Assembly: GCA_964533515.1 (NCBI GenBank)
Contig: CAZHMB010000003.1
Span: 1 to 45,742, forward strand
Source of the DNA: Candidatus Woesearchaeota archaeon
GTDB taxonomy: Archaea > Nanobdellota > Nanobdellia > Pacearchaeales > GW2011-AR1
Length of the DNA: 45,742 nucleotides
Direction of reading: 5' to 3'
Below the pieces are notes generated by a model. That model was given only the letters and a program-made list of their open reading frames with translations. It made no database searches and had not been told where the DNA came from. The position numbers and the translations under genes are program-made. Of this stretch, positions 534 through 45,322 are shown piece by piece (within the stretch, counting starts at the first letter, position 1; every line of letters begins with the position of its first letter).

Positions 534-695
534 TCCCCCCACCAAGATTTGAACTTGGGATCTTCCGGGTCCTGTTAAATATATAACACAAACCGAACTG
601 GCTTATCGAATTTCACAGTTATCCTCTAAGAAGAGGAATCTCCATCCTAGTCATTTAACTACAGCCAGACGCTTTAACCACTAAGCTATGGAGGG
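534..695 (-). tRNA. tRNA-Tyr (anticodon GTA) with an intron of about 89 nt after position 37
   Basis: Minus strand: CCCTCCA-TA-GCTT-AGTGGTTA-AAGC-G-TCTGG-CTGTAG / intron / C-CCGGA-AGATC-CCAAG-TTCAAAT-CTTGG-TGGGGGG-A. The C1:G72 pair with A73 is the archaeal/eukaryal tRNA-Tyr identity set. Intron ends TTAAAT...ATTTAA are complementary. CCA is not encoded. Confidence 0.8.
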
Positions 696-4724: not shown

Positions 4725-6335
4725 ATGGCTGAAGAATTTCTATCGGAAAATACAGAAAGAACAATTGGAAGAAACGCTCAAAAGAATAATATCGCTGCCG
4801 CAAAAGCCGTTGCCGATATAGTTAAAACAACTCTTGGTCCAAAAGGCATGGACAAAATGCTTCTAAGCCCAGACGGAGATTTGATAGTCACAAACGACGG
4901 AGTAACAATTCTCGAAGAAATGCAAATAGAACACCCTGCTGCAAAAACATTGGTAGAAGTTGCTCAAACCCAAGAAGCAGAAGTAGGAGACGGGACAACA
5001 ACCGCAGTAATGTTGGCAGGAAAACTCTTAGAGAACGCGGAAAAATTATTAGACAAGAAAATCCACCCGACCGCCATAGCAAAAGGTTACAAGCTAGCAG
5101 CAGAAAAATCACAAGAGATCCTAAAAGAAATCTCATTAAGAGTCACGCCCGATAACTTGGATGTTTTAAAACAAATAGCAATGACTGCCATGACCGGAAA
5201 AGGAGCCGAAGCAGAAAAAGAAAAACTTTCTGAAATAATTGTAAACGCGGTAAAACAAATTTCACAAGGATTAAATCCAGAAGAAATAAATCTTAACAAC
5301 ATTAAAATAGAAAAATCTAGAGGTGACGGAATTTCGCAAACAGAATTGATATCCGGAATTGTTTTGGATAAAGAAAAAACCTCAAACGAAATGCCAACAT
5401 TAATTCAAGATGCAAAAATTGCTTTGATTGATTTCCCTTTGGAAATAAAAAACCCCGAGATTGAAACTAGAATATCTGTTACAAGTCCTGAACAACTTCA
5501 AAGTTTTCTAAGTCAAGAAGAATCCTCAATAAGAAATATGGTTGAAAAAATCTCTCAACAAAACGTGAACGTCTTGATATGTCAAAAAGGAATTGATGAT
5601 TTTGCCCAATATCTTCTTGCGAAAAAAGGAATTTATGCATTAAGACGAGTTGCAAGAAACGATATAGAAAAAATAGCAAAAGCAACTGCAGCAAAAATAA
5701 CTTCAAGTTTAGATGAACTCACAGAATCTGAACTAGGAACAGCAAAAGAAGTCAAAGAAAAGATCTCATCTGGAGAAGCTTTCACTTATATAACCGGATG
5801 CCAAAACCCAAAAGCTTTGACAATCCTCATAAAGGGAGGAAGCGAACATGTCATGGACGAAGTAAAAAGAGCAATTCTCGACGGCCTCGGAGATGTTGCC
5901 TCATGTTTAAAATCCGGCCTTGTAGTTGCTGGCGGCGGAGCGATCGAAATGGAACTTGCAAAACAACTTGAAGAATATTCAAAAACACTCTCAGGAAGAG
6001 AACAGCTCGCTGTTAAAGAATTCGCATCAGCATTAGAATTCATTCCAATAACTTTAGCAGAAAACTCCGGCCTTGACCCCATAGACACTTTAACGGAATT
6101 AAAATCATTACATTCTCAAGGACAGAAAAATATGGGCTTAAATCTTTTTGAAAATAAAATAGCAGATACACTTCAAGCAAGAATTCTCGAGCCATGGAAG
6201 ATAAAGTCCCAAGCAATCAGCTCAGCAACCGAAGTTGCCATAATGATTCTTCGAATCGATGATATAATTGCATCAAAGCCAAAAGAACCAAAAGAAACTT
6301 CTGAAAAAGGAAAATTTGTCGAAGGTTTTGAATGA
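4725..6335 (+). CDS. ths: Thermosome subunit (group II chaperonin)
   Basis: Motifs [28 protein letters not shown] and VAGGGAIE are present. Length is 536 aa with a charged C-terminal tail. Confidence 0.97.
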
Positions 6336-12833: not shown

Positions 12834-14921
12834 ATGGCAAAAGAGACAAGTGAGGAAACGGAAACTGAATTCCAGGAATCGGGCGAAGAACAACGGACTT
12901 CTGAAAAACATCAAAGATCAAAAAACGACGACTTAATCACTGAAGCAAAAGGCTTCTTCAACACTTACAAAAAAGAACTCGGACAATCTTTAAGAAAAGG
13001 CGACAAAGCAATCTACCTTGACTTCATGAAGCTAACAGAATATTCAAGCAAAATAGCTGAAGAAATCCTTTCACATCCTGAAGAAACTCTAAGAATGATG
13101 GAAGTCGCAATCGAAGAATCGGGCCTAGTCAAAGATATAAGAATCCGTTTGTTCGGCTTGCCTTCAGGACACGACGTAAAGATCAGAAACATCCGTTCAA
13201 GACATCTAAACGAATTAATAGTAATAGAAGGCCTCGTCCGTCAAGCTTCAGATGTCCGACCCCAAGTTGTAAATGCAAAATTCGAATGCCCCAGTTGTGG
13301 AACAATAATCTCGGTCCTACAAATAGAGAAAAAGTTCAGAGAACCCTCAAGATGCTCCTGCGGAAGAAGAGGCGGATTCAAATTAATTTCCAAAAGTATG
13401 GTAGACACCCAAAGACTCGTTATAGAAGAATCTCCTGAAAATTTAACTGGTGGTGAACAGCCAAAAAGAATGAACATTTTCGTAAAAGAAGATTTGGTCG
13501 AACCACACATGGAAGAGAAAACAACACCGGGTAGCAAAGTAAAAGCGGTCGGAATTTTAAAAGAAGTTCCCGTGCCATTACCAACTGGGGGTCTATCAAC
13601 AAGATTCGAACTCGCAATTGAAGCAAACAATTTAATCCCCCTTGAAGAAACTTTTGAAGACCTAGATATCTCAGAAGAAGACGAGCAACAAATTCTAGAA
13701 CTTTCACAAGATCCTAAAATATTCGACAAATTAGCAACAAGCCTTTCACCAAATATCTGGGGATATGAAGAAATAAAAAAATCGCTTGTTTTACAATTAT
13801 TCGGCGGCGTCAAAAAAATCCACAAGTCCGGAGCGAGATCAAGAGGAGATATGCATATTCTTTTAGTCGGAGACCCCGGAGTAGCAAAAAGTCAGATGCT
13901 TGAATTCATGGCCAAGATTTCTCCAAAGGGAAGATATGTCGTCGGTAAATCCACATCGGGAGCAGGTTTAACCGCAACGGTTGTCCGAGACGAATATCTA
14001 AAAGGTTGGTCATTAGAAGCAGGAGCAATGGTCCTAGCGAACAAAGGACTCGTCTGTATTGACGAATTAGAAAAAATGGACCCCCAAGATCGAAGTGCAA
14101 TGCATGAAGCCCTGGAACAACAAACAGTTACAATCTCAAAAGCAAATGTTCAAGCAAGCTTAAGAGCTGAAACTTCTGTTCTCGCAGCAGCAAACCCAAA
14201 ATTCGGAAGATTCGACCCCTACCAAGCAATCGCCCAACAAATTGAATTGCCTCCAACATTGATCAATCGTTTCGATATAATTTTCACAATGCGTGACGTG
14301 CCAGACAAAAAGAAAGACGAGATGATCGCAAGCCATGTTTTACATGAACATCAAGAATCGGGAGGGGACATGTTGATAGAAAGAGAATTATTCAGAAAAT
14401 ACGCCGCATATGCAAAACAGAGAGTCAAACCAGAATTAACAACCGAAGCATCAAACGAGTTAAAAAAATTCTATGTCAATTTAAGAAACAGACCAGTCGC
14501 ATCTGAAGCCGCATTAAGACCGATTCCTATTTCAGCCCGTCAACTGGGGGCCCTAATTCGTATGTCCGAGGCATCAGCAAAAATCAGATTAAGCGAAAAA
14601 GTCACAAAAGAAGACGCGATAATCTCAATTGAATTGATGAAATACTACTTAATGCAAGTGGGTTATGATTACGAAAGCAAAAGTTTTGACATAGACCGAA
14701 TAGCCTCCAAAGTGACCTCAAGTCAAAGAGGAAAAATTATGAATGTCAAAGAAGCAATAACTGAACTCGAAGGAAAAATAGGGAAATTAATCCCCATCGA
14801 AGAAATTGAAAAAGAACTTGAAGGCAAGATGACAAAAGATGAAATAGACGAAGCAATCACAAAGTTAAACTCCGCGGGGGATATTTTCAAACCTCGAAGA
14901 GGTTACGTCCAGAAGATGTGA
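12834..14921 (+). CDS. mcm: MCM replicative helicase
   Basis: Zinc finger CPSCG...CSCG, Walker A GDPGVAKSQ, Walker B CIDELEKM and arginine finger region SVLAAANP...RFD. C-terminal winged helix. Length 695 aa. Confidence 0.97.
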   Translation: MAKETSEETETEFQESGEEQRTSEKHQRSKNDDLITEAKGFFNTYKKELGQSLRKGDKAIYLDFMKLTEYSSKIAEEILSHPEETLRMMEVAIEESGLVKDIRIRLFGLPSGHDVKIRNIRSRHLNELIVIEGLVRQASDVRPQVVNAKFECPSCGTIISVLQIEKKFREPSRCSCGRRGGFKLISKSMVDTQRLVIEESPENLTGGEQPKRMNIFVKEDLVEPHMEEKTTPGSKVKAVGILKEVPVPLPTGGLSTRFELAIEANNLIPLEETFEDLDISEEDEQQILELSQDPKIFDKLATSLSPNIWGYEEIKKSLVLQLFGGVKKIHKSGARSRGDMHILLVGDPGVAKSQMLEFMAKISPKGRYVVGKSTSGAGLTATVVRDEYLKGWSLEAGAMVLANKGLVCIDELEKMDPQDRSAMHEALEQQTVTISKANVQASLRAETSVLAAANPKFGRFDPYQAIAQQIELPPTLINRFDIIFTMRDVPDKKKDEMIASHVLHEHQESGGDMLIERELFRKYAAYAKQRVKPELTTEASNELKKFYVNLRNRPVASEAALRPIPISARQLGALIRMSEASAKIRLSEKVTKEDAIISIELMKYYLMQVGYDYESKSFDIDRIASKVTSSQRGKIMNVKEAITELEGKIGKLIPIEEIEKELEGKMTKDEIDEAITKLNSAGDIFKPRRGYVQKM

Positions 14922-34223: not shown

Positions 34224-34634
34224 TTATAAATTTTGTTGTGTTAAAAGAATTCCATCCACTTCCTCAAGAACATTTGCAAAAAACCCGCTGTTCTTCTGAG
34301 CATTCAACTTTGACACCACTTCCGAAACATCCTTTCCAGTAATCAAAGAAACTCTTTTACTGCCCCCCCCTTCAAGAGGCCTATAATGAGGAAAAGAAAG
34401 AAGCCCTTCCCCCGACCCATCAGAACAAAAACTTGCTAAAGAATACCCTGAAACCCCCCTTGATTCCCAAACAAGTTTTCCAATATCTTCCAAAAAAGCG
34501 ACGGGATAAACATGTGAAAGGAAATTATCCTCGTTTCCTATAAAATGATGACCATAAAAATATTCTTGATTCTCACTATCTTCAAAACATACTCGTCTAC
34601 CCATACCCATATTTCCTTTTTCCCCATCTATCAT
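34224..34634 (-). CDS. Orphan protein (136 aa)
   Basis: Clean ORF. It contains an in-frame G8 run (34363..34370) encoding GGG. No family recognised. Confidence 0.55.
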   Translation of the reverse strand: MIDGEKGNMGMGRRVCFEDSENQEYFYGHHFIGNEDNFLSHVYPVAFLEDIGKLVWESRGVSGYSLASFCSDGSGEGLLSFPHYRPLEGGGSKRVSLITGKDVSEVVSKLNAQKNSGFFANVLEEVDGILLTQQNL

Positions 34635-38075: not shown

Positions 38076-38456
38076 TCATTCCTCTTTCTTAGGAAGCACT
38101 AACGAAGTCAGGTCGATGATATATTTTCCTTCTTCCATTTTATATATTAAAGGTCGATTTTTGCTAAACAAATTTGCAAGATCAATTTCATATCTTCCAC
38201 TTCCAGTTGCCCTTATAGATTCGAGATCCAAGATAACGGGAGCATCCTCTTTCTCGATGCCAGCCATCTCACGGATATCCATTTCAACTTGCTTCTTATC
38301 TTCTACTTCAAGTTCAACAGGCTCTTTCTTAACTTGCTCAAGTTGCTCATCCCTAATATAAAAGAAAAAATGGCCCTGGCAATCTTTACACCCTTCGATT
38401 AATTCCCTACTTCCAGCAGGAATAATTCTTTTACAATGTACACATTGGTGTGGCAT
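38076..38456 (-). CDS. Zn-ribbon protein (DUF2072-like, from memory)
   Basis: MPHQCVHCKRIIPAGSRELIEGCKDCQGHFFFY gives CxxC...CxxC at the N-terminus. Confidence 0.6.
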   Translation of the reverse strand: MPHQCVHCKRIIPAGSRELIEGCKDCQGHFFFYIRDEQLEQVKKEPVELEVEDKKQVEMDIREMAGIEKEDAPVILDLESIRATGSGRYEIDLANLFSKNRPLIYKMEEGKYIIDLTSLVLPKKEE

Positions 38457-38532: not shown

Positions 38533-39834
38533 ATGACCAAAACAACTGAAAAAATATACAAAGAAATTCTAAAAGAGATAACCCCAAACAAAGAGGCCCA
38601 AGAAAAGATAGCTTTCATATTAAAGGATTTCCAAAGAAAATTAAAAAACCAAATCTCAAAATTGAATATTGAAGCTGAAATTTTTATTGGGGGAAGCTAT
38701 GCTAAGAAAACTTTAATACAAAAAGAGAAATATGATGTGGATATTTTTATAAGATTTAATGAAAAATATCCCAATCAAGAAATCTCAAAATTAACAAAAA
38801 ATATCTTAACAAACTTAAAACCCAAACCAAACCTAAGAATTTTGCACGGCTCAAGAGATTACTTCCAAATATCAGCAACAAAAAATATAGAATTAGAAAT
38901 ATTACCTGTGAAAAAATCCCCTTCTCCAGAAAAAGCTGAAAATATAACAGACCTCTCATACAGCCATGTAAGTTATGTAAATAAAAAAGCAAAAGCAAAA
39001 AGAGTTTTAGATGAAATAAAAATCTCAAAAGCCTTCACTCACGCCTGCAATTGCTACGGTGCCGAATCATACATCCAAGGTTTTTCAGGATATGCTCTGG
39101 AACTTTTAATTTTGCATTATAAATCCTTTGAAAAATTTCTTAGAGAAACAATAAAAGTAAAAACAGGGAAACAATTAATAATTGATATTGAAAAACAATT
39201 CAAAAGACCTTCAGAAGTTTTGCTCGAATTAAACTCTTCAAAACTTCAATCCCCAATAATCTTGGTTGATCCTACTTACAAGAAAAGAAATGTCCTTGCT
39301 GCCCTCTCCCAAGAAACTTTTGAAAAATTCCAGACCCACGCAAGAAATTTCTTAAAAAAACCCTCTATAAATTTCTTCCACAAAACACAAATAAATTTAG
39401 AAAAAGAAAAAACCAAAGCAGAAAAAAACAAAAACCAATTCCTTATTCTTGAAATCCAAACAGCCAAACAACCGGGAGACATAGCAGGAACAAAACTTTT
39501 GAAATTTTACAAACATTTGAACCAAGAAATTTCAAAAGTTTTTGACATTAAAAATTCCGGATTTCTTTACAACGAAAAACAATCTGCAAGAATATTCCTT
39601 TCTGTCAAACCAAAAAAGCAAATTGTTTTCCAAGGCCCAAATTTGAAAGAAAAACACCACGTCAAAAAATTTAAGAAAATTCATAAAAAGACTTTAATAA
39701 AGAACAACACAATTTACGCAAAAGAAATTCCAATTCAAAGTTTAAAGGAATTTCTAAACGTTTGGACAAAAAACAAAGCCAACAAAAGAAAAATTCGAGA
39801 AATGTATGTCAAAAATTTTAAGATTGTTGAATAA
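38533..39834 (+). CDS. cca: Archaeal class I CCA-adding tRNA nucleotidyltransferase
   Basis: The GGSYAKKTLIQKEKYDVDIFIRF catalytic motif (GS...DxD), a length of 433 aa and the tail-domain layout all fit. Confidence 0.88.
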   Translation: MTKTTEKIYKEILKEITPNKEAQEKIAFILKDFQRKLKNQISKLNIEAEIFIGGSYAKKTLIQKEKYDVDIFIRFNEKYPNQEISKLTKNILTNLKPKPNLRILHGSRDYFQISATKNIELEILPVKKSPSPEKAENITDLSYSHVSYVNKKAKAKRVLDEIKISKAFTHACNCYGAESYIQGFSGYALELLILHYKSFEKFLRETIKVKTGKQLIIDIEKQFKRPSEVLLELNSSKLQSPIILVDPTYKKRNVLAALSQETFEKFQTHARNFLKKPSINFFHKTQINLEKEKTKAEKNKNQFLILEIQTAKQPGDIAGTKLLKFYKHLNQEISKVFDIKNSGFLYNEKQSARIFLSVKPKKQIVFQGPNLKEKHHVKKFKKIHKKTLIKNNTIYAKEIPIQSLKEFLNVWTKNKANKRKIREMYVKNFKIVE

Positions 39835-39836
39835 AG

Positions 39837-40052
39837 TTATTTATCGCTCCTTCTAAATGTAATTTTTTTAGGAATCACCCCAAGTTTAGAGCCATGTTCA
39901 TGAGTTAAAAAATAAACTTGCATAATACGTCTTCGATCTTCCTTTAAATCCCCTGTTGTTCTTTTACGCAACACCCCAGGAAGTTCCCCCCCATCTGCAT
40001 AGGGCTGATAATCATGTCTTTCTTCAGACCCCGATGAATCACTTTCACCCAT
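39837..40052 (-). CDS. Operon gene 9: 71-aa charged orphan protein
   Basis: The ATG lies 2 nt after the TrmB stop, with GGGGAGG inside the last TrmB codons. Translation begins MGESDSSGSEERHDYQPYADGGELPGVLRKRTTGDLKEDRRR... Confidence 0.5.
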   Translation of the reverse strand: MGESDSSGSEERHDYQPYADGGELPGVLRKRTTGDLKEDRRRIMQVYFLTHEHGSKLGVIPKKITFRRSDK

Positions 40053-40054
40053 CC

Positions 40055-40879
40055 TTATTTCCTCCCCTTTACCTTTTTATCTTTTTTGGCTTTCTCAGCA
40101 TCTGCAACTTTCATTGCTCCTTCAAACATGTCGGCAAAAGCTGTCGAGAAAAAATCTGAATTCAACCAAACAGCAATATCATCGTTGTCCGCGTCTTTCG
40201 CTAAGTAGAATAAAATTTCCCTTCGATCTATGATAAAAAACTTTGCTTTGATTTCTGTTTTCTTCGCTTTAACTCCAAGTCTCTCGCCTATTCTTTGAAC
40301 CATTTCTTCCTCGCCATTAAGGACAACAACAACTTTCATTCCCGCTTTTTGCAATCTGTCAATTGTTTCTTTAAACAAACTTACTCTTCGATTTATGTCC
40401 TCAACGTGCGTACAGATTATAACTTCCTTTTGCGCATTTTCCAAAATTTCTCTAAGATAATGCGAAATGTTCGACTTTCCTTTCAGCGAAGCTGAAACAT
40501 CTTCTCTCTTCACAGGCTCAATTCCACCCTTATACAATTTATCAAGTTGAACAAACTCATCAGACTCTTTAATCTTCGAAAGTCTCTCAACTCTATCATG
40601 CGCATCCTTCTGAGCATTCCGTTTCATCTTCTCAATTATTGTCTCAGGTTTAAGTCCAAGATATTTCACTGGCTTACCAAGTTTGATTATTGCAAATCCT
40701 CTTTTCTCAAGAGATTCAAGAACATCATAAGTTCTAGACCTCGGAACTCCAGAAATGCTCGCAACCTCACCAGCTGATGCAACTCCTTTAGACAATAAAG
40801 CTAACCAAACCTTCGTCTCATAAATATTAAGATTGAAATAATCTTTTACTCTTTCAATTAATTCTTTTTGTACTATCAT
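40055..40879 (-). CDS. Operon gene 8: TrmB-family transcriptional regulator
   Basis: YETKVWLALLSKGVASAGEVASISGVPRSRTYDVLESLEKRGF is the TrmB wHTH. ATGA overlap with gene 7. Confidence 0.8.
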   Translation of the reverse strand: MIVQKELIERVKDYFNLNIYETKVWLALLSKGVASAGEVASISGVPRSRTYDVLESLEKRGFAIIKLGKPVKYLGLKPETIIEKMKRNAQKDAHDRVERLSKIKESDEFVQLDKLYKGGIEPVKREDVSASLKGKSNISHYLREILENAQKEVIICTHVEDINRRVSLFKETIDRLQKAGMKVVVVLNGEEEMVQRIGERLGVKAKKTEIKAKFFIIDRREILFYLAKDADNDDIAVWLNSDFFSTAFADMFEGAMKVADAEKAKKDKKVKGRK

Positions 40880-41187
40880 TGTGTTGCTCCTTCAGCTTTT
40901 AACTTTCTTAATCGTTTTTCCTTTTTCATCCTTTCTGAAATTCTCTTATTAACTTGGTAAGCCATAATAGCAGCAACAGGAATAGCTACAGCATACCCCA
41001 ATACTGTAAAAAGGGCACTAGTCATCTCCCGAGAAGTAATTTCCTTTGTTCTTTCCCAATCATGTCTTAACACTTCCGCCTGACCATACTCTTTAACATT
41101 TCTTATCCCATCTCGAAAATCATAAGGATATTTATACATTGTAATTCTTTTTCTCCCAACATCTTGTCTTCCTTCTTTTTCTGTCAT
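40876..41187 (-). CDS. Operon gene 7: 103-aa protein with C-terminal-half TM helix and basic tail
   Basis: MTEKEGRQ...; TM helix ALFTVLGYAVAIPVAAIMAY; tail KKEKRLRKLK. Confidence 0.55.
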   Translation of the reverse strand: MTEKEGRQDVGRKRITMYKYPYDFRDGIRNVKEYGQAEVLRHDWERTKEITSREMTSALFTVLGYAVAIPVAAIMAYQVNKRISERMKKEKRLRKLKAEGATQ

Positions 41188-41188
41188 T

Positions 41189-41404
41189 TTAATCTCGACC
41201 CCCCATTTCTATGACACTATCTCCTTCATAAACAACATCTCCAGAAGGTTTTGCATAAAATTCTGAAGTTAAAAAAGAGACAACTTTCCCGGTTTTAATA
41301 TCCCTGAAATCAGTTCTATTTTTATTTGTAGTAGGTCCTCTTAAAAAATATTCTTTCCCCCCCATTCTAGGGCAGCTTATCCTTATTCCTTCTTCTCCCG
41401 TCAT
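41189..41404 (-). CDS. Operon gene 6: 71-aa soluble beta-rich orphan
   Basis: MTGEEGIRISCPRMGGKEYFLRGPTTNKNRTDFRDIKTGKVVSF...EMGGRD*. It has the standard junction on both sides. Confidence 0.5.
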   Translation of the reverse strand: MTGEEGIRISCPRMGGKEYFLRGPTTNKNRTDFRDIKTGKVVSFLTSEFYAKPSGDVVYEGDSVIEMGGRD

Positions 41405-41405
41405 T

Positions 41406-41935
41406 TTATTTCTGACCCCCAGTAATAATTAATCCATATTTCTCTTTTACTTCTCTTTGATCAAGATTTAACTCAGAAGTTAGATATCTTAATTTTGCTG
41501 CAGTGCTAGCTTGCAAATTTTCTTGCTCTTTCACAGATCTACGATTTAATCTTGCTAATTCTGCTTCTGCTGCGGATAAAGCAAGAACGAAATCTCCCTC
41601 TAAACCCCTAAGACGCCTTCCATTAATATCATAAACTGCCGGAACTGGATTTGAAACAAAATAATTAGTAGCCCCACCATTAGTTACAACTTTGAACTCA
41701 TTAGTTCCATCTCCATCTCGATCCACTCCAGAGATATACTTTGCTCTCGCGCTGGCTTTTCCCTCACTCTTTCCAACCTCAAGACCTTGATCATACCCAT
41801 GATTAATCATAGCTGTTAGCCCTGCCCCCCCCCCCCCAATATTACTAAACCCCCAAGAACACCGGTCACAATCCGACTAGCGATTCCTGAGGCATTGTTT
41901 CTCCCATCTAATACTTGTGAAGCTTTATTTCTCAT
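41406..41935 (-). pseudogene. Operon gene 5: TM-anchored DxDxDG paralog split by a G13 tract (intact 176 aa if G14)
   Basis: The 5' fragment 41816..41935 reads MRNKASQVLDGRNNASGIASRIVTGVLGGLVILGGGGQG*. The 3' fragment 41406..41810 is in the other frame. One extra G yields ...VILGGGGAGLTAMINHGY... The core motif is GVDRDGDGTNEFKVVTNGGATNYFV. Confidence 0.6.
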
Positions 41936-41936
41936 T

Positions 41937-42296
41937 TTATTTTAACCCCATTGTCTGTTTTCTTGATCCGTCTATTCCCTCTGGATTTATAAGAGTATAT
42001 CTTGGAGAATTGTCTTGTTCACGCGAGCAGGTTAAACCTTCTCCCAAATAGTTTGTTCCTGAAAATAAATAAGAATTTGTTTCTCCTTCTCTTACGACAA
42101 CATATTCTGTTCCTGCACCTCTGCTCATCTGAACATTTCTCAAAAATACTTGTTCTGCTTTTTCTCCTTCAGATCTAACTCCAGCCCCAGATTCTCTAGG
42201 ACTTTTAAAATGGGATATGCCAAACAGAGTAGCCACCATAGCCAATGCGAATATTGTATTATTTCTTGATATCTTTCTTTCATTTTCTTTTGTCAT
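41937..42296 (-). CDS. Operon gene 4: 119-aa TM-anchored paralog (degenerate loop)
   Basis: Internal ATG at 42296 with the standard junction. MTKENERKISRNNTIFALAMVATLFGISHF..., then SRGAGTEYVVVREGETNSYLF. Confidence 0.6.
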   Translation of the reverse strand: MTKENERKISRNNTIFALAMVATLFGISHFKSPRESGAGVRSEGEKAEQVFLRNVQMSRGAGTEYVVVREGETNSYLFSGTNYLGEGLTCSREQDNSPRYTLINPEGIDGSRKQTMGLK

Positions 42297-42297
42297 T

Positions 42298-42471
42298 TTA
42301 TTCTCGACCCCCTTTAACTTTTCCAACACTTGCATCAGCACCAAGATATCTCTCTAAAGTATCATCAGAACCCGTATCTCCAACAGTTCTTTCACCTGCA
42401 CAATCATATTCCGTTTTACCTACAGCTTTTCTTATTCCTTCCACTATTTCCTTAGATTTATCTTTATCCAT
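42298..42471 (-). CDS. Operon gene 3: unlisted 57-aa soluble orphan
   Basis: Hand translation: MDKDKSKEIVEGIRKAVGKTEYDCAGERTVGDTGSDDTLERYLGADASVGKVKGGRE*. It fills the gap between genes 2 and 4 exactly. Confidence 0.5.
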   Translation of the reverse strand: MDKDKSKEIVEGIRKAVGKTEYDCAGERTVGDTGSDDTLERYLGADASVGKVKGGRE

Positions 42472-42480
42472 TTAAAATCC

Positions 42481-42963
42481 TTAATGACTAAAAAGCTCCT
42501 CAGCTCTTCCTCTAGCTTTTTCATATTTAATTGCTGAACCAGATTTATTCCCTACTGATTGACCTTCCAATCTCGCCACATCATTAGAACGAGCTTCGCC
42601 TAAAGGCAAATATTCTCTCTGGTCAGGAACCAGCTGTCCCCACGTCAAATCTGCAACAGATCTTTCTCCCCTATAAACAAAAGTCTTCACATCACCGTTT
42701 CCTTGTAAAAAAGATACATCATTTGTTCCATCTTGATCAACATCGTATAATCCAAAATCTACAACTCTAGAACCTTCGGTTCCGTCCTTAAACCCTTTTC
42801 TATAACTCTTCCTACTATTGTTTTCTCCTATTGCAATAGTAAACAAACAACTAATTAATCCAATTGCAGCCGTAAGAACACTAATTCCCTTCTGTCTTCT
42901 AAGAAGAGATGCTGTTGGCGCTTCTTCTCCTTTCACTGTTTTTTCAGGTTTATCTTGTGTCAT
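42481..42963 (-). CDS. Operon gene 2: 160-aa TM-anchored DxDxDG paralog with prepilin-like N-terminus
   Basis: Internal ATG at 42963 with the standard junction. LLRRQKG-ISVLTAAIGLISCLFTIAIG, then YDVDQDGTNDVSFLQGNGDVKTFVY. Confidence 0.6.
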   Translation of the reverse strand: MTQDKPEKTVKGEEAPTASLLRRQKGISVLTAAIGLISCLFTIAIGENNSRKSYRKGFKDGTEGSRVVDFGLYDVDQDGTNDVSFLQGNGDVKTFVYRGERSVADLTWGQLVPDQREYLPLGEARSNDVARLEGQSVGNKSGSAIKYEKARGRAEELFSH

Positions 42964-42964
42964 T

Positions 42965-43192
42965 TTATTTACAACCTCTCCCTTGACTATTATCTCGACA
43001 ACGACCAATCCAACCATCATCAAAAGATTGCGGACCAAGTTGTCCAGGATTTAAAAGAACGCAATGATACTCCTCACAAGGACCAACCATCCCCTCTTCA
43101 GCAACTCTCTTAAGATGTTCAAAACTATCCCTTGATGTTGGGCCACCACCATCTGGATTAAATTCTTGATTGTATAAATCATCTTGTGTCAT
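42965..43192 (-). CDS. Operon gene 1: 75-aa Cys-containing soluble orphan
   Basis: Internal ATG at 43192. MTQDDLYNQEFNPDGGGPTSRDSFEHLKRVAEEGMVGPCEEYHCVLLNPG...RCRDNSQGRGCK*. It shares AAAATGACACAAGAT with the start of gene 2. Confidence 0.5.
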   Translation of the reverse strand: MTQDDLYNQEFNPDGGGPTSRDSFEHLKRVAEEGMVGPCEEYHCVLLNPGQLGPQSFDDGWIGRCRDNSQGRGCK

Positions 43193-43220
43193 TTTAACTA
43201 CTAAACGATAAAAAATATTC

Positions 43221-43228
43221 TTTATAAA
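43221..43228 (-). promoter_or_regulatory. Palindromic TATA box (TTTATAAA) for the minus-strand operon
   Basis: Lies 29 to 36 nt upstream of the ATG at 43192. This is the usual archaeal spacing for short-leader or leaderless mRNAs. Confidence 0.4.
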
Positions 43229-43274
43229 TCTTTCGATTATGTCGCAACTTATCAAAGGTAACAAAAGGGTAAGC

Positions 43275-43283
43275 TTTATAAAA
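43275..43283 (+). promoter_or_regulatory. TATA box (TTTATAAAA) for the divergent 43307 gene
   Basis: Lies 24 to 32 nt upstream of the ATG at 43307. Confidence 0.4.
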
Positions 43284-43306
43284 TGTAAAAATGGTTAAAA
43301 AGTACA

Positions 43307-43702
43307 ATGAAAAAATCAACCGTTGGTTTCGCCAATACAAAACGAGAAGAAGATTTTTACCAAGATCATATTGGAGAATGGGTAAATCTTTTTCCAAAAG
43401 ATAAGGATGCGCTAGCAACTTCGGGAGTTATAACAAGATATTCTAGATCAGACCACTCTGTAATTCTCAATCCTTTTCTGGGTATACATTACTCTTCAGA
43501 CGGAGGTGCTGAATGGCAAATTCTAAGGAAAGCTACTGCAGTTGATCTGCACACTGTCGGAAGGCCTGAAGAAACAGATGAAGGAAACGCCGAGGGAAGA
43601 GCTATAAATTACAACAAACAATTAAGAATAAATCGCTTAGAGAGAAATGCAAAACTAGAAAAACTAGAAGCAGAAGCCAAAAAAGATTCACCTTCTCAAT
43701 AA
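43307..43702 (+). CDS. Orphan protein (131 aa), divergent from the operon
   Basis: Clean ORF with a beta-rich N-half (GEWVNLFPKDKDALATSGVITRYSRSDHSVILNPF) and a coiled-coil C-half. No family recognised. Confidence 0.55.
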   Translation: MKKSTVGFANTKREEDFYQDHIGEWVNLFPKDKDALATSGVITRYSRSDHSVILNPFLGIHYSSDGGAEWQILRKATAVDLHTVGRPEETDEGNAEGRAINYNKQLRINRLERNAKLEKLEAEAKKDSPSQ

Positions 43703-43709
43703 ACTTTAT

Positions 43710-44708
43710 CTATCCAAAAGCCAACTTCCAAAGAATCCCAAGAATTATGGAAACAAAAATTCCAGTGGTAACAAAGGGCATGGCTGGATAACTTTCATTC
43801 TTCTTTTTCTTTGATTCGAAAAACAGATAGATTAAAGCGGATGTGGCCCCAAGCAGAACTAACAGCGAGGGTATCAAACCTAAAATCCTATAGACAACCC
43901 CCATCGAGATTACTGAGAAGACAATATCGCCACCCCCAAGAACAGCAATATTAACATTCAACTTGTTTTTCTTAATAACATTCGCCGGAATAACCTTCTT
44001 ATCTTTATATTTCAAACGAAGCGCTTTAATCTTTTCTTTAACTTTTCTTGAAGCATAAGGAACCAAGAAACCTCCAAAAACGCCAACAGACTCAATCTGA
44101 TATGAAGCCATTTTCTGCATAATACCCGTATGCCAAACCGCCCACATATCATAAGCCGAAATCAATATCAAAATAACAACAAGCGAATAAATATTCAACA
44201 ATGGAACAAAGATTAACGCTATTCCCGGATAGATAAACAATTCAGTTAAATTATGAACAAGCATATTTCTTTTAAAGATTTTCCAAATTCCAAAAACCAA
44301 AGCAATTCCTAGAGGAATTATAATTCTCCAAAAGTTCTGGAAATCAAAAAAGAATTTTTGAAAAGCATACAAACTCAAGAACAAAGCAAAAGTTGCAACA
44401 ATAAAAAACCAACCCCTGAGAAAAAAGTCGGCTTTAATTTTATTCAAAACTAAGATCAAGACTATTGCAATAATAAAAGCGAAAATCAAATTGAAAATCA
44501 TAGCAGCAGCGCCCCCGGCATCTTCAATATCTGGAGATTCAATAAACATAAAATCAGGATTCATTGATTCCACAACACTTCCGTTCACAATTTCAGAAAC
44601 ATGCAACGGATCAATAGAAATAACAAACAACCCGATTAACAATGTCAAAATAAACATCCCAAGAATAATTGAATAAACTTTTACTTTCTTATCCATCTCT
44701 TTTTTCAT
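43710..44708 (-). CDS. Presenilin / signal-peptide-peptidase homolog (A22 GxGD intramembrane aspartyl protease)
   Basis: YD motif in ISAYDMWAVW, GxGD motif in AVLGGGDIVFS, PAL-like YPAMPF. About 9 TM helices. Confidence 0.8.
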   Translation of the reverse strand: MKKEMDKKVKVYSIILGMFILTLLIGLFVISIDPLHVSEIVNGSVVESMNPDFMFIESPDIEDAGGAAAMIFNLIFAFIIAIVLILVLNKIKADFFLRGWFFIVATFALFLSLYAFQKFFFDFQNFWRIIIPLGIALVFGIWKIFKRNMLVHNLTELFIYPGIALIFVPLLNIYSLVVILILISAYDMWAVWHTGIMQKMASYQIESVGVFGGFLVPYASRKVKEKIKALRLKYKDKKVIPANVIKKNKLNVNIAVLGGGDIVFSVISMGVVYRILGLIPSLLVLLGATSALIYLFFESKKKKNESYPAMPFVTTGIFVSIILGILWKLAFG

Positions 44709-44836: not shown

Positions 44837-45222
44837 ATGGAAAAGATATTATGGCTCGAAGCTGAAACAGGATGTTGTTCTGGGATAAAAATGGTTTTAG
44901 AAAGAGAAGGGGGGGGGTTGTTAAGATCGCCCAAAATGTAGAAACCGCACTCAATTGTTTAGACACTTCAAGATATGGGTTTGTTATCGCTGAACCTTAT
45001 CATAGTTGTGTTGAGAAAATTCCAGAACGAATGGCCCTGATTCAATCCTTTCTAGAAAAGGCAACTGCAAAATCCCCAACAATGTTATTAACTTCTCTTA
45101 ATGAGGAATGGCTTGCAGATTATGGTTTGGAAAAAGGGGCACATTATCATCATTATATGCAAAAGCCAACCCCCTCAGAGAAAATTATCTCAAGAATAGG
45201 CCAAATACTTTCAGGACAATAA
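44837..45222 (+). pseudogene. Atypical CheY-like receiver-domain protein split by a G9 tract (intact if G10)
   Basis: ATG 44837 gives MEKILWLEAETGCCSGIKMVLEREGGG, then an out-of-frame stop at 44941. The listed ORF 44872..45222 carries ...VVKIAQNVETALNCLDTSRYGFVIAEPYH...MLLTSL...YMQKPTPSEKIISRIGQIL. REC landmarks are present (beta1 KILWLEAE, acceptor position E in VIAEP, T in LLTS, the KP pair), but the acidic residues are substituted. Confidence 0.55.
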
Positions 45223-45259
45223 TTCCAGAATTTTTCCCATTAATCTTCTGTTAATTTTT

Positions 45260-45322
45260 CCCATTAATTTTTTGTTTTAAGCGTAGCATTCTGACAGAGT
45301 CGAATGCGGAGCGTCTTAAAAC
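45260..45322. repeat. Intergenic hairpin element, copy B
   Basis: CCCATTAATTTTTTGTTTTAAGCGTA-GCATTC-TGACAGAGTC-GAATGC-GGAGCGTCTTAAAAC. It is preceded by an extra tandem copy of the left box (TTTTTCCCATTAAT at 45231 and 45255). Confidence 0.7.

Follow-up and report, generated by a model that had tools for sequence, protein, structure and literature searches.

Introduction

Can an archaeon switch a membrane protein on and off by the gain and loss of single G residues in a homopolymer? The question is raised by a 45,742-nucleotide stretch of DNA, here called the window, from a Candidatus Woesearchaeota archaeon (assembly GCA_964533515.1, contig CAZHMB010000003.1), in which thirteen consecutive G, in the coding sense, split a gene that we term g3 into two open reading frames (ORFs). 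In bacteria, phase variation through slippage at repeats is central to the biology of host-microbe and phage-microbe interaction. DPANN archaea have small genomes, and many are thought to live attached to hosts, a lifestyle in which turning envelope or signalling proteins on and off at random, at little cost, would make sense. If the g3 tract is a switch of this kind, a known type of mechanism would gain a new member in a lineage where it has not yet been shown. Together with a second such tract it would amount to the first archaeal phasome built on simple-sequence repeats, and this in an organism presumed to rely on contact with host cells. On archaeal phase variation by repeats we found in the literature only in-silico and statistical surveys of homopolymers (PMC2831843, PMC3315296), and a 2025 review leaves the distribution of phase variation across archaeal phylogenies to future work (PMC11868660). 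The analysis reported here makes the g3 tract a well-formed, testable candidate for such a switch, not a demonstration of one.

Results and discussion

A run of thirteen G divides g3

Positions 41824..41838 of the plus strand read G-C13-A, which places the run at exactly 41825..41837; read in the direction of g3, a minus-strand gene (41406..41935), it is G13. The tract begins at nucleotide 99 of the gene, 18.6% of its length. The 5' fragment (41816..41935) extends from an ATG at 41935..41933 through 39 codons (MRNKASQVLDGRNNASGIASRIVTGVLGGLVILGGGGQG) to a premature TAA at 41818..41816. The 3' fragment, an ORF of 134 codons at 41406..41810, opens with an ATG 5 nt past this stop and 125 nt downstream of the first ATG, hence in a different frame, one that is reached with one extra G. 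Altering the tract in silico joins the two: G14 yields a single protein of 176 residues (containing ...VILGGGGAGLTAMI..., with an in-frame junction that reads ...VILGGGGAGLTAMINHGYDQGLEVGK), G11 one of 175 and G17 one of 177, and G12, G13, G15 and G16 give truncated products of 39-44 residues. The fused protein would be anchored at its N-terminus by a predicted transmembrane (TM) helix at residues 22-40, IVTGVLGGLVILGGGGAGL, with a Kyte-Doolittle maximum of 1.83; because this hydrophobic segment passes through the Gly run encoded by the tract, it is complete in the fused frame only. A first, sequence-only reading of this DNA had described the position of the run, the 39-codon ORF ending at 41816, the different frame of 41406..41810 and the placing of the Gly run inside the TM helix, all of which our results bear out; it erred in assigning 176 residues to the G11 product as well as to that of G14.

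The 3' fragment comprises a conserved GY...DxDxDGTNE...NPxPxxY...G domain and a long C-terminal helix. Just 0.9% of the stop-to-stop stretches in the window are as long as its 134-codon open frame, and none of 20000 shuffles of g3 keeps that frame open. The fragment retains each of the 14 residues after the tract that do not vary in the family alignment described below, and it has no stop and no further indel. An open and conserved downstream frame argues against an old pseudogene; decay of this part, which the earlier reading had put forward as the mark of a plain pseudogene, was sought and none was seen.

The minus-strand sense of 41819..41854, that is the coding strand and the mRNA, also carries a formal G-quadruplex motif (G5...G13-CA-GGG; G3-N1-G3-N1-G3-N3-G3). 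Such a motif could stall polymerases and may contribute to slippage and to sequencing drop-out beside the tract.

Distant homologues of g3 are unsplit

An exhaustive HMMER (phmmer) search with the 134-residue part, against 1.84 billion representative sequences, matched a small unnamed family, P0003 (183 residues, E = 2e-9), P0006, P0007 and P0008, with E values from 2e-9 to 7e-5; it also gave weak matches to FG-GAP-like DxDxDG repeats. Compared pairwise, g3 and P0003 match with E = 3e-19, and the family alignment has 15 invariant columns over the GY...DxDxDGTN[ED]...NPxPxxY...G domain. Each of the four proteins is a single ORF with a hydrophobic TM helix 35-55 residues before the GY motif (Kyte-Doolittle maxima of 1.8-1.9 in the N-terminal 40 residues), and a G-x-GAG[LF] motif common to g3 and P0003 lies across the fused junction. 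The fused reading of g3 is, to judge from these alignments, the architecture native to the family: in all four distant homologues one uninterrupted ORF includes the same N-terminal helix. The sequence-only reading had proposed comparing orthologous loci, and the relatives do hold one unsplit ORF with a short run or none: at the site homologous to the tract P0003 has CTT GGG GGG ATT (Leu-Gly-Gly), a G6, while P0006 and P0008 have no run. Since the orthologues carry G6 or nothing, the long tract is a lineage-specific expansion of a Gly-codon seed.

Other searches added little to this family. Word-indexed homology searches with fused g3, and with a fused receiver-like protein described below, returned only the window's own ORFs, and a scan of genome contigs with fused g3 gave no match. 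A metagenome scan with the same query returned two contigs only, the Joint Genome Institute (JGI) contig L001, which ends before the tract, and L002; the latter was rejected as a relative, being an unrelated protein of 684 residues on a contig of 54% GC that shares the DGDGTNEF repeat motif alone. Pfam has no family for g3, for the neighbouring genes g1 and g2 or for the small neighbouring proteins. The AlphaFold2 model of fused g3 is weak, with a predicted local distance difference test score (pLDDT) of 56 overall and of 74-85 only at residues ~90-160 (a beta sheet and a long helix), and Foldseek comparison of this model with the PDB gave no match better than E = 0.4, so that no fold could be assigned. 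That g3 is a surface protein we infer from its N-terminal TM helix, taken as an anchor with N-in topology.

A recent loss is another candidate, in which a slippage deletion from G14 to G13 would have become fixed in this strain and killed the gene, tolerated because g1 and g2 are present, without any switching. The window has three TM-protein paralogues where each of two related loci, L083 (GCA_964489675.1) and L087 (JGI Ga0373649_0000283), has one, so the locus has grown and could afford to lose a copy; the nearest window relative of the family is nevertheless g3 itself (3e-19), g1 being weaker (2e-5) and g2 giving no match and being recognised by architecture and motif. Long bacterial G tracts, including G11 in Campylobacter jejuni, do mutate mostly by deletion of one nucleotide (PMC3401435), and a second frameshifted gene nearby could reflect general decay in a reduced genome; yet the g3 tract is uninterrupted, the 134 codons after it show none of the damage that would accompany decay, and at bacterial rates a G13 would be unlikely to hold one length for long. 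On this evidence we judge a recent pseudogene decidedly unlikely.

The tract exceeds expectation

No homopolymer in the window, of whatever base, is as long as G13: the next G/C runs measure 9 and 8 nt, and A/T runs do not exceed 8. A first-order Markov model predicts 4e-4 G/C runs of at least 13, and the maximum in 200 simulated windows was 11. As GGG makes up 21.7% of the Gly codons in 46 long ORFs, the probability of four consecutive GGG is ~0.002. Related DPANN loci, 282 kb in all, have no G/C run of 8 or more. Measured against base composition and codon usage alike, the tract is over-represented beyond chance, which upholds its earlier description as striking in an AT-rich genome (the contig has ~35% GC). 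All 63 A/T runs of 7-8 nt in the window, and all its G/C runs of up to 8, among them a G8 at 34363..34370 and a G7 at 41357..41363, leave their frames undisturbed; the contig is therefore not generally prone to homopolymer error.

A second tract splits a receiver-like gene

The sole other G/C run of at least 9 in the window is a G9 at 44909..44917, on the coding (plus) strand of a receiver-domain-like gene (44837..45222) that it cuts into ORFs 44837..44941 and 44872..45222. It begins at 18.9% of its gene: both tracts thus start about 19% into a gene, with G on the coding strand, and they lie ~3 kb apart. In silico, G10 or G7 gives a single receiver-like protein of 127 residues, with a junction that reads ...EREGGGVVK, so that one more G is needed, as in g3. 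Residues 1-125 of this protein align with the receiver domains of CpxR (4uhj, E = 1.2e-3), PhoP and PhoB. Its match to Pfam PF00072 (Response_reg), at residues 10-51 across the junction, scores 18.8 bits (E = 0.0019), below the gathering cut-off of 30.2, and its acidic pocket reads LEAE against VDDD, the acceptor position not being Asp. The second split gene is thus receiver-like and possibly encodes a pseudo-receiver.

The only public runs containing the sequence are labelled salt lake metagenome. Four runs exist as Logan contigs, and one of them, X1, is the only run that holds the g3 locus, with 95% of the local sequence words at a depth of ~5-8x. The separate Logan assembly of X1 crosses the G9 with no mismatch and no gap. 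A frameshift reproduced in this way by a separate assembly is therefore not one assembler's artefact, and from the G9 case we conclude that genuine G-tract frameshifts occur in this genome.

A protein at 6325..6741 of L083 that, like the receiver-like protein, begins MKKLLWV was considered as its relative and rejected, there being no significant similarity. In the spacer after the receiver-like gene, at 45229..45276, lies a 24-nt tandem duplication (AATTTTTCCCATTAATCTTCTGTT) in perfect register, its copies 92% identical.

How firm is the count of thirteen?

The G13 of g3 is less securely read. A 433-nt contig of X1, at a depth of 4.7x, covers 41408..41837 and then has 3 unaligned letters that differ from the AAT of the window. 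The next X1 contig (7.76x) begins at 41860, the 22 nt 41838..41859 and all words over the right edge of the tract being absent. The JGI contig L001, identical to the window over 41860..44471, ends at exactly the same position. Both assemblies break next to the tract. Plausibly, words across it were too few or too heterogeneous, and the piece left at 41838..41889 was then trimmed away as a short dead end. Such a break fits true heterogeneity of length and low-depth Illumina poly-G error equally. The difference in depth between the tract contig (4.7x) and the sequence beside it (7.8x), which might come from strain heterogeneity or from noise in a short contig, was not relied on. The call of G13 rather than G14 is fragile.

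The dominant tract might then truly be in frame, most simply as G14, with the G13 produced by low coverage and Illumina or PCR error, and the gene intact. The low word depth, the words missing at the right edge from X1 and the ending of L001 at the same position would all be accounted for, three letters other than AAT after C13 would fit a longer run, and g3 is otherwise perfect and orthologous to intact genes. The G9 tells against this explanation, in that it is short enough for reliable reading and has the very same length in the separate Logan assembly, yet splits its gene all the same; so does the absence of any frame disruption at the 63 A/T runs of 7-8 nt (0 of 63) and at G/C runs of 8 or less. 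We regard a miscount as fairly unlikely, though a serious contender; even then a G14 run would be a site prone to slippage. Were it a miscount, the lesson would be that long G runs in low-coverage metagenome-assembled genomes (MAGs) create false split genes, and the unnamed family and its conserved locus, in which a signal-peptide-peptidase (SPP)-like gene, TM-protein gene, TrmB gene and CCA-adding-enzyme gene come in that order, would still be useful for annotation.

A search for runs, centred on each tract, found no additional run holding the locus, and no RNA run holding it. What looked in X1 like another allele, carrying 6 inserted nt at 41430, was rejected as a 31-nt chance match of an unrelated 1524-nt contig.

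Could the split genes be read through?

Stable G13 and G9 in the DNA could still yield full proteins if RNA polymerase stuttered and inserted an extra G, or if tRNA-Gly slipped by -1 on G GGG GGG. The repair would be identical in the two split genes (+1 nt in the RNA, or a ribosomal shift of -1), although agreement in direction between two sites has a chance probability of 0.5. The run contains the heptamer G GGG GGG, a slippery site in form only, and identical GGG codons permit perfect re-pairing in the -1 frame; in the 80 nt after either tract, however, no stimulatory RNA structure stands out against shuffles (z = 0.03 and 2.0). The two-ORF layout is, moreover, not conserved, P0003, P0006 and P0008 being single ORFs with G6 or no tract and P0007 a single ORF. 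With no downstream structure and no split in the orthologues, a classical programmed -1 frameshift signal was rejected, such a frameshift being unlikely from the sequence. We know of no demonstration that archaeal RNA polymerase slips on G runs. Ribosomal frameshifting by -1 is documented in Archaea, in fucA1 of Sulfolobus (PMC1616953, PMC8211752), and bacterial transcriptional slippage on runs of at least 9 is known (PMC1088944); the documented cases of the latter are mostly at A/T runs, and that paper covers runs of A and T. Recoding of either kind seems to us very unlikely.

A proposed slippage switch

The reading that we favour takes g3 to contain a hypermutable coding-strand poly-G tract that acts as an on/off site by slippage; we would put it just short of an even chance. 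A spot coding for Leu-Gly-Gly, a G6 in the nearest orthologue, would have expanded in one lineage to G13-14, beginning less than a fifth of the way into a DPANN gene that is conserved and encodes a small protein with an N-terminal membrane anchor. Slipped-strand mispairing at replication would add or remove single G residues, as the rates measured in bacteria for G8-G11, ~1e-4 to 4e-3 per division, suggest. G14 or G11 would be the ON state, giving the full anchored protein of 176 or 175 residues, and G13 or G12 the OFF state, giving only a stub of 39-43 residues with a truncated TM helix; the assembly would have captured the OFF length. In the G13 state re-initiation at ATG 41810, as at the other tight junctions of the operon, might speculatively yield the 134-residue domain without its TM helix. 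The G9 of the receiver-like gene 3 kb away would toggle likewise.

This reading is favoured because the G9, a robust case, establishes that G-tract frameshifts are real in this genome, because coding-strand poly-G placed early in an ORF of an AT-rich genome with few runs of intermediate length matches the pattern of C. jejuni, and because a run of 13-14 nt is physically expected to slip. The broader proposal, that poly-G tracts are true contingency loci in a salt-lake DPANN archaeon of the Woesearchaeota/Pacearchaeota type, with at least two of them here and with stochastic on/off expression, is a tentative one, and on balance more apt to fail than to hold.

Several points weigh against the favoured reading. 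Polymorphism of tract length in the population, the defining property of phase variation, and its use rather than mere tolerance, are inferred by analogy with bacterial loci. Depth over the tract contig is only ~4.7x, and breaks there are to be expected from Illumina poly-G errors alone. The long tract is conserved in none of the homologues with readable DNA (P0003, P0006, P0008), so that there is no comparative sign of a maintained switch; g3 is, moreover, the positional orthologue of a conserved single-copy gene, so that a G14 which is in frame and was simply miscounted is an appealing alternative. A phasome would take more than two loci in one 46-kb contig, and g3, with neither a Pfam family nor a fold match, offers no independent functional ground to expect bet-hedging. 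Of the original proposal of a switch, then, the split-gene anatomy stands, the intact downstream part and the G9 as a second case lend it support, and the switching itself stays a candidate.

Parallels with known systems

A poly-G tract in the signal-peptide coding region of Neisseria pilC reportedly switches that gene, as Jonsson and co-workers are said to have shown experimentally in 1991. The likeness to g3 lies in a G run of about 11-13 in an N-terminal hydrophobic segment for export or anchoring, where a frameshift turns the protein off; pilC differs in being a gene of a bacterial pathogen with a known role in pilus assembly and adhesion. Diversity-generating retroelements were reportedly described in DPANN and candidate phyla radiation (CPR) organisms by Paul and co-workers in 2015 and 2017. 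They resemble the proposed switch in giving DPANN archaea a means of varying proteins that are presumed to be in contact with host or environment, and differ in that they rewrite codons by reverse transcriptase; none was seen at the g3 locus, where no search was aimed at them. In insect endosymbionts Tamas and co-workers are said to have reported, in 2008, frameshifts at poly(A) that transcriptional slippage rescues. The resemblance to endosymbionts, and to bacterial insertion sequence (IS) elements (PMC1088944), is that of a reduced genome with an otherwise intact gene out of frame at a long homopolymer, where correction in RNA is possible; there, unlike here, the runs are of A/T rather than G.

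A close parallel in arrangement is C. jejuni, for whose poly-G/C loci Bayliss et al. 2012 (PMC3401435) report measured length variation, its rates (1e-4 to 4e-3 per division) and its reversibility, and in which 80% of tracts are coding-strand poly-G in ORFs (PMC3401435). As there (Parkhill 2000; PMC3401435), the genome is AT-rich (31% GC in C. jejuni, ~35% here) and G runs of 9 or more occur amid few shorter ones, the tract lies in an ORF, early in the gene and mostly with G on the coding strand, and a single-base change toggles the frame; its targets are often envelope-associated, a point on which g3 may be likened to them. Unlike C. jejuni, this is an uncultured DPANN archaeon with another replication and repair apparatus and with two loci, from one contig. 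Reversible homopolymer frameshifts also occur in the 7C tract of glpK in Mycobacterium tuberculosis (PMC10334774, bioRxiv 10.1101/717272), likewise a coding homopolymer in an otherwise intact conserved gene; the transient heritable loss of function is that of glpK, and the M. tuberculosis tracts, unlike that of g3, are short, lie in a GC-rich genome and were found as polymorphism across thousands of isolates. The fucA1 gene of Sulfolobus solfataricus (PMC1616953; PMC8211752) is, like g3, an archaeal gene in two ORFs that needs a -1 shift; it differs in having an A-AAA-AAT heptamer and experimental validation, where g3 has no stimulatory structure and unsplit orthologues.

The locus and its neighbours

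Two further genes of the minus-strand row encode TM-anchored proteins: g2 (41937..42296), a weak paralogue of 119 residues, and g1 (42481..42963), a paralogue of 160 residues with a DVDQDGTND motif. The paralogy of g3 with its neighbours, asserted in the sequence-only reading, holds insofar as all share an N-terminal TM helix and a D-x-D-x-DGTN motif; similarity is weak, at phmmer E = 0.0025 between g3 and the neighbouring ORF of g1 (42481..43038). The stop-A-ATG junction noted earlier is present between g2 and g3 (TAA-A-ATG, 41939..41933), and minus-strand junctions of the same type occur at 41402..41408, 41185..41191, 42294..42300, 42961..42967 and 43190..43196. A conserved GGGGGTCGAGAaTAAAATGAC motif accompanies the TAA-A-ATG junction at three other gene boundaries (families D1/D2/D6).

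Minus-strand boundaries at 41161..41208, 41378..41425 and 42270..42317 (also 42952..42972 and 43181..43201) carry the sense motif GGGGGTC(G/A)AGA(A/T)TAAAATGAC: a Shine-Dalgarno-like box rich in G, then a stop, a single A and ATG-AC, with several products beginning MT(Q/K/G)(D/E). To judge from this pattern, a small-gene module with tightly coupled translation may have been duplicated repeatedly.

At the downstream end of this same-strand row lies a TrmB-family transcription regulator (40055..40879, minus strand). TrmB stands 0-3 genes after the family gene in L083, L087 and the P0007 contig; a TrmB orthologue (E = 2.6e-81) comes two genes after P0003, and TrmB follows P0006 directly, so that by position too these two are orthologues of g3. 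In L087, the locus of P0006, the order is that of the window: SPP-like gene, small genes, family gene, TrmB, small gene, CCA enzyme. The neighbourhood from the presenilin/SPP-like membrane protease to the CCA-adding enzyme, 38533..44708 in the window, is conserved among these DPANN loci, as comparison with L087 and L083 shows.

A sibling salt-lake allele, in runs X3 and X4, has 41796..42293 (the N-terminus of g3 and all of g2) exchanged for 144 other letters, rejoining the window at 42294. The g3 domain of this allele is ~93% identical, diverges at 41795 and has a different N-terminus, the first 30 replaced letters reading in frame KSIHNYGESR, followed by YDQG. The locus is therefore structurally variable between populations.

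Between the window and L001 all 8 differences fall within 61 nt (44472..44532) of the SPP-like gene, 7 of the 8 being synonymous, and X1 has two 121-nt contigs (4.8x and 6.4x) in this region. Judging from these sequences, two or more strains seem to co-occur that have the operon in common and differ at its edges.

The rest of the contig

Among the products encoded in the window are archaeal MCM, the CCA-adding enzyme, OapC, TrmB and a thermosome that has 66-75% identity to those of Woesearchaeota, Pacearchaeota and Nanoarchaeota MAGs, in agreement with the DPANN assignment made from the sequence beforehand. A tRNA at 534..695 (minus strand), spread over 162 nt, scores 49.9 bits with Rfam and is not found by ARAGORN in bacterial mode; it is presumably an intron-containing archaeal tRNA. 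The contig also carries the genes for MCM (12834..14921) and for the origin-associated protein OapC (38076..38456), and a replication origin may lie near 38.0-38.5 kb.

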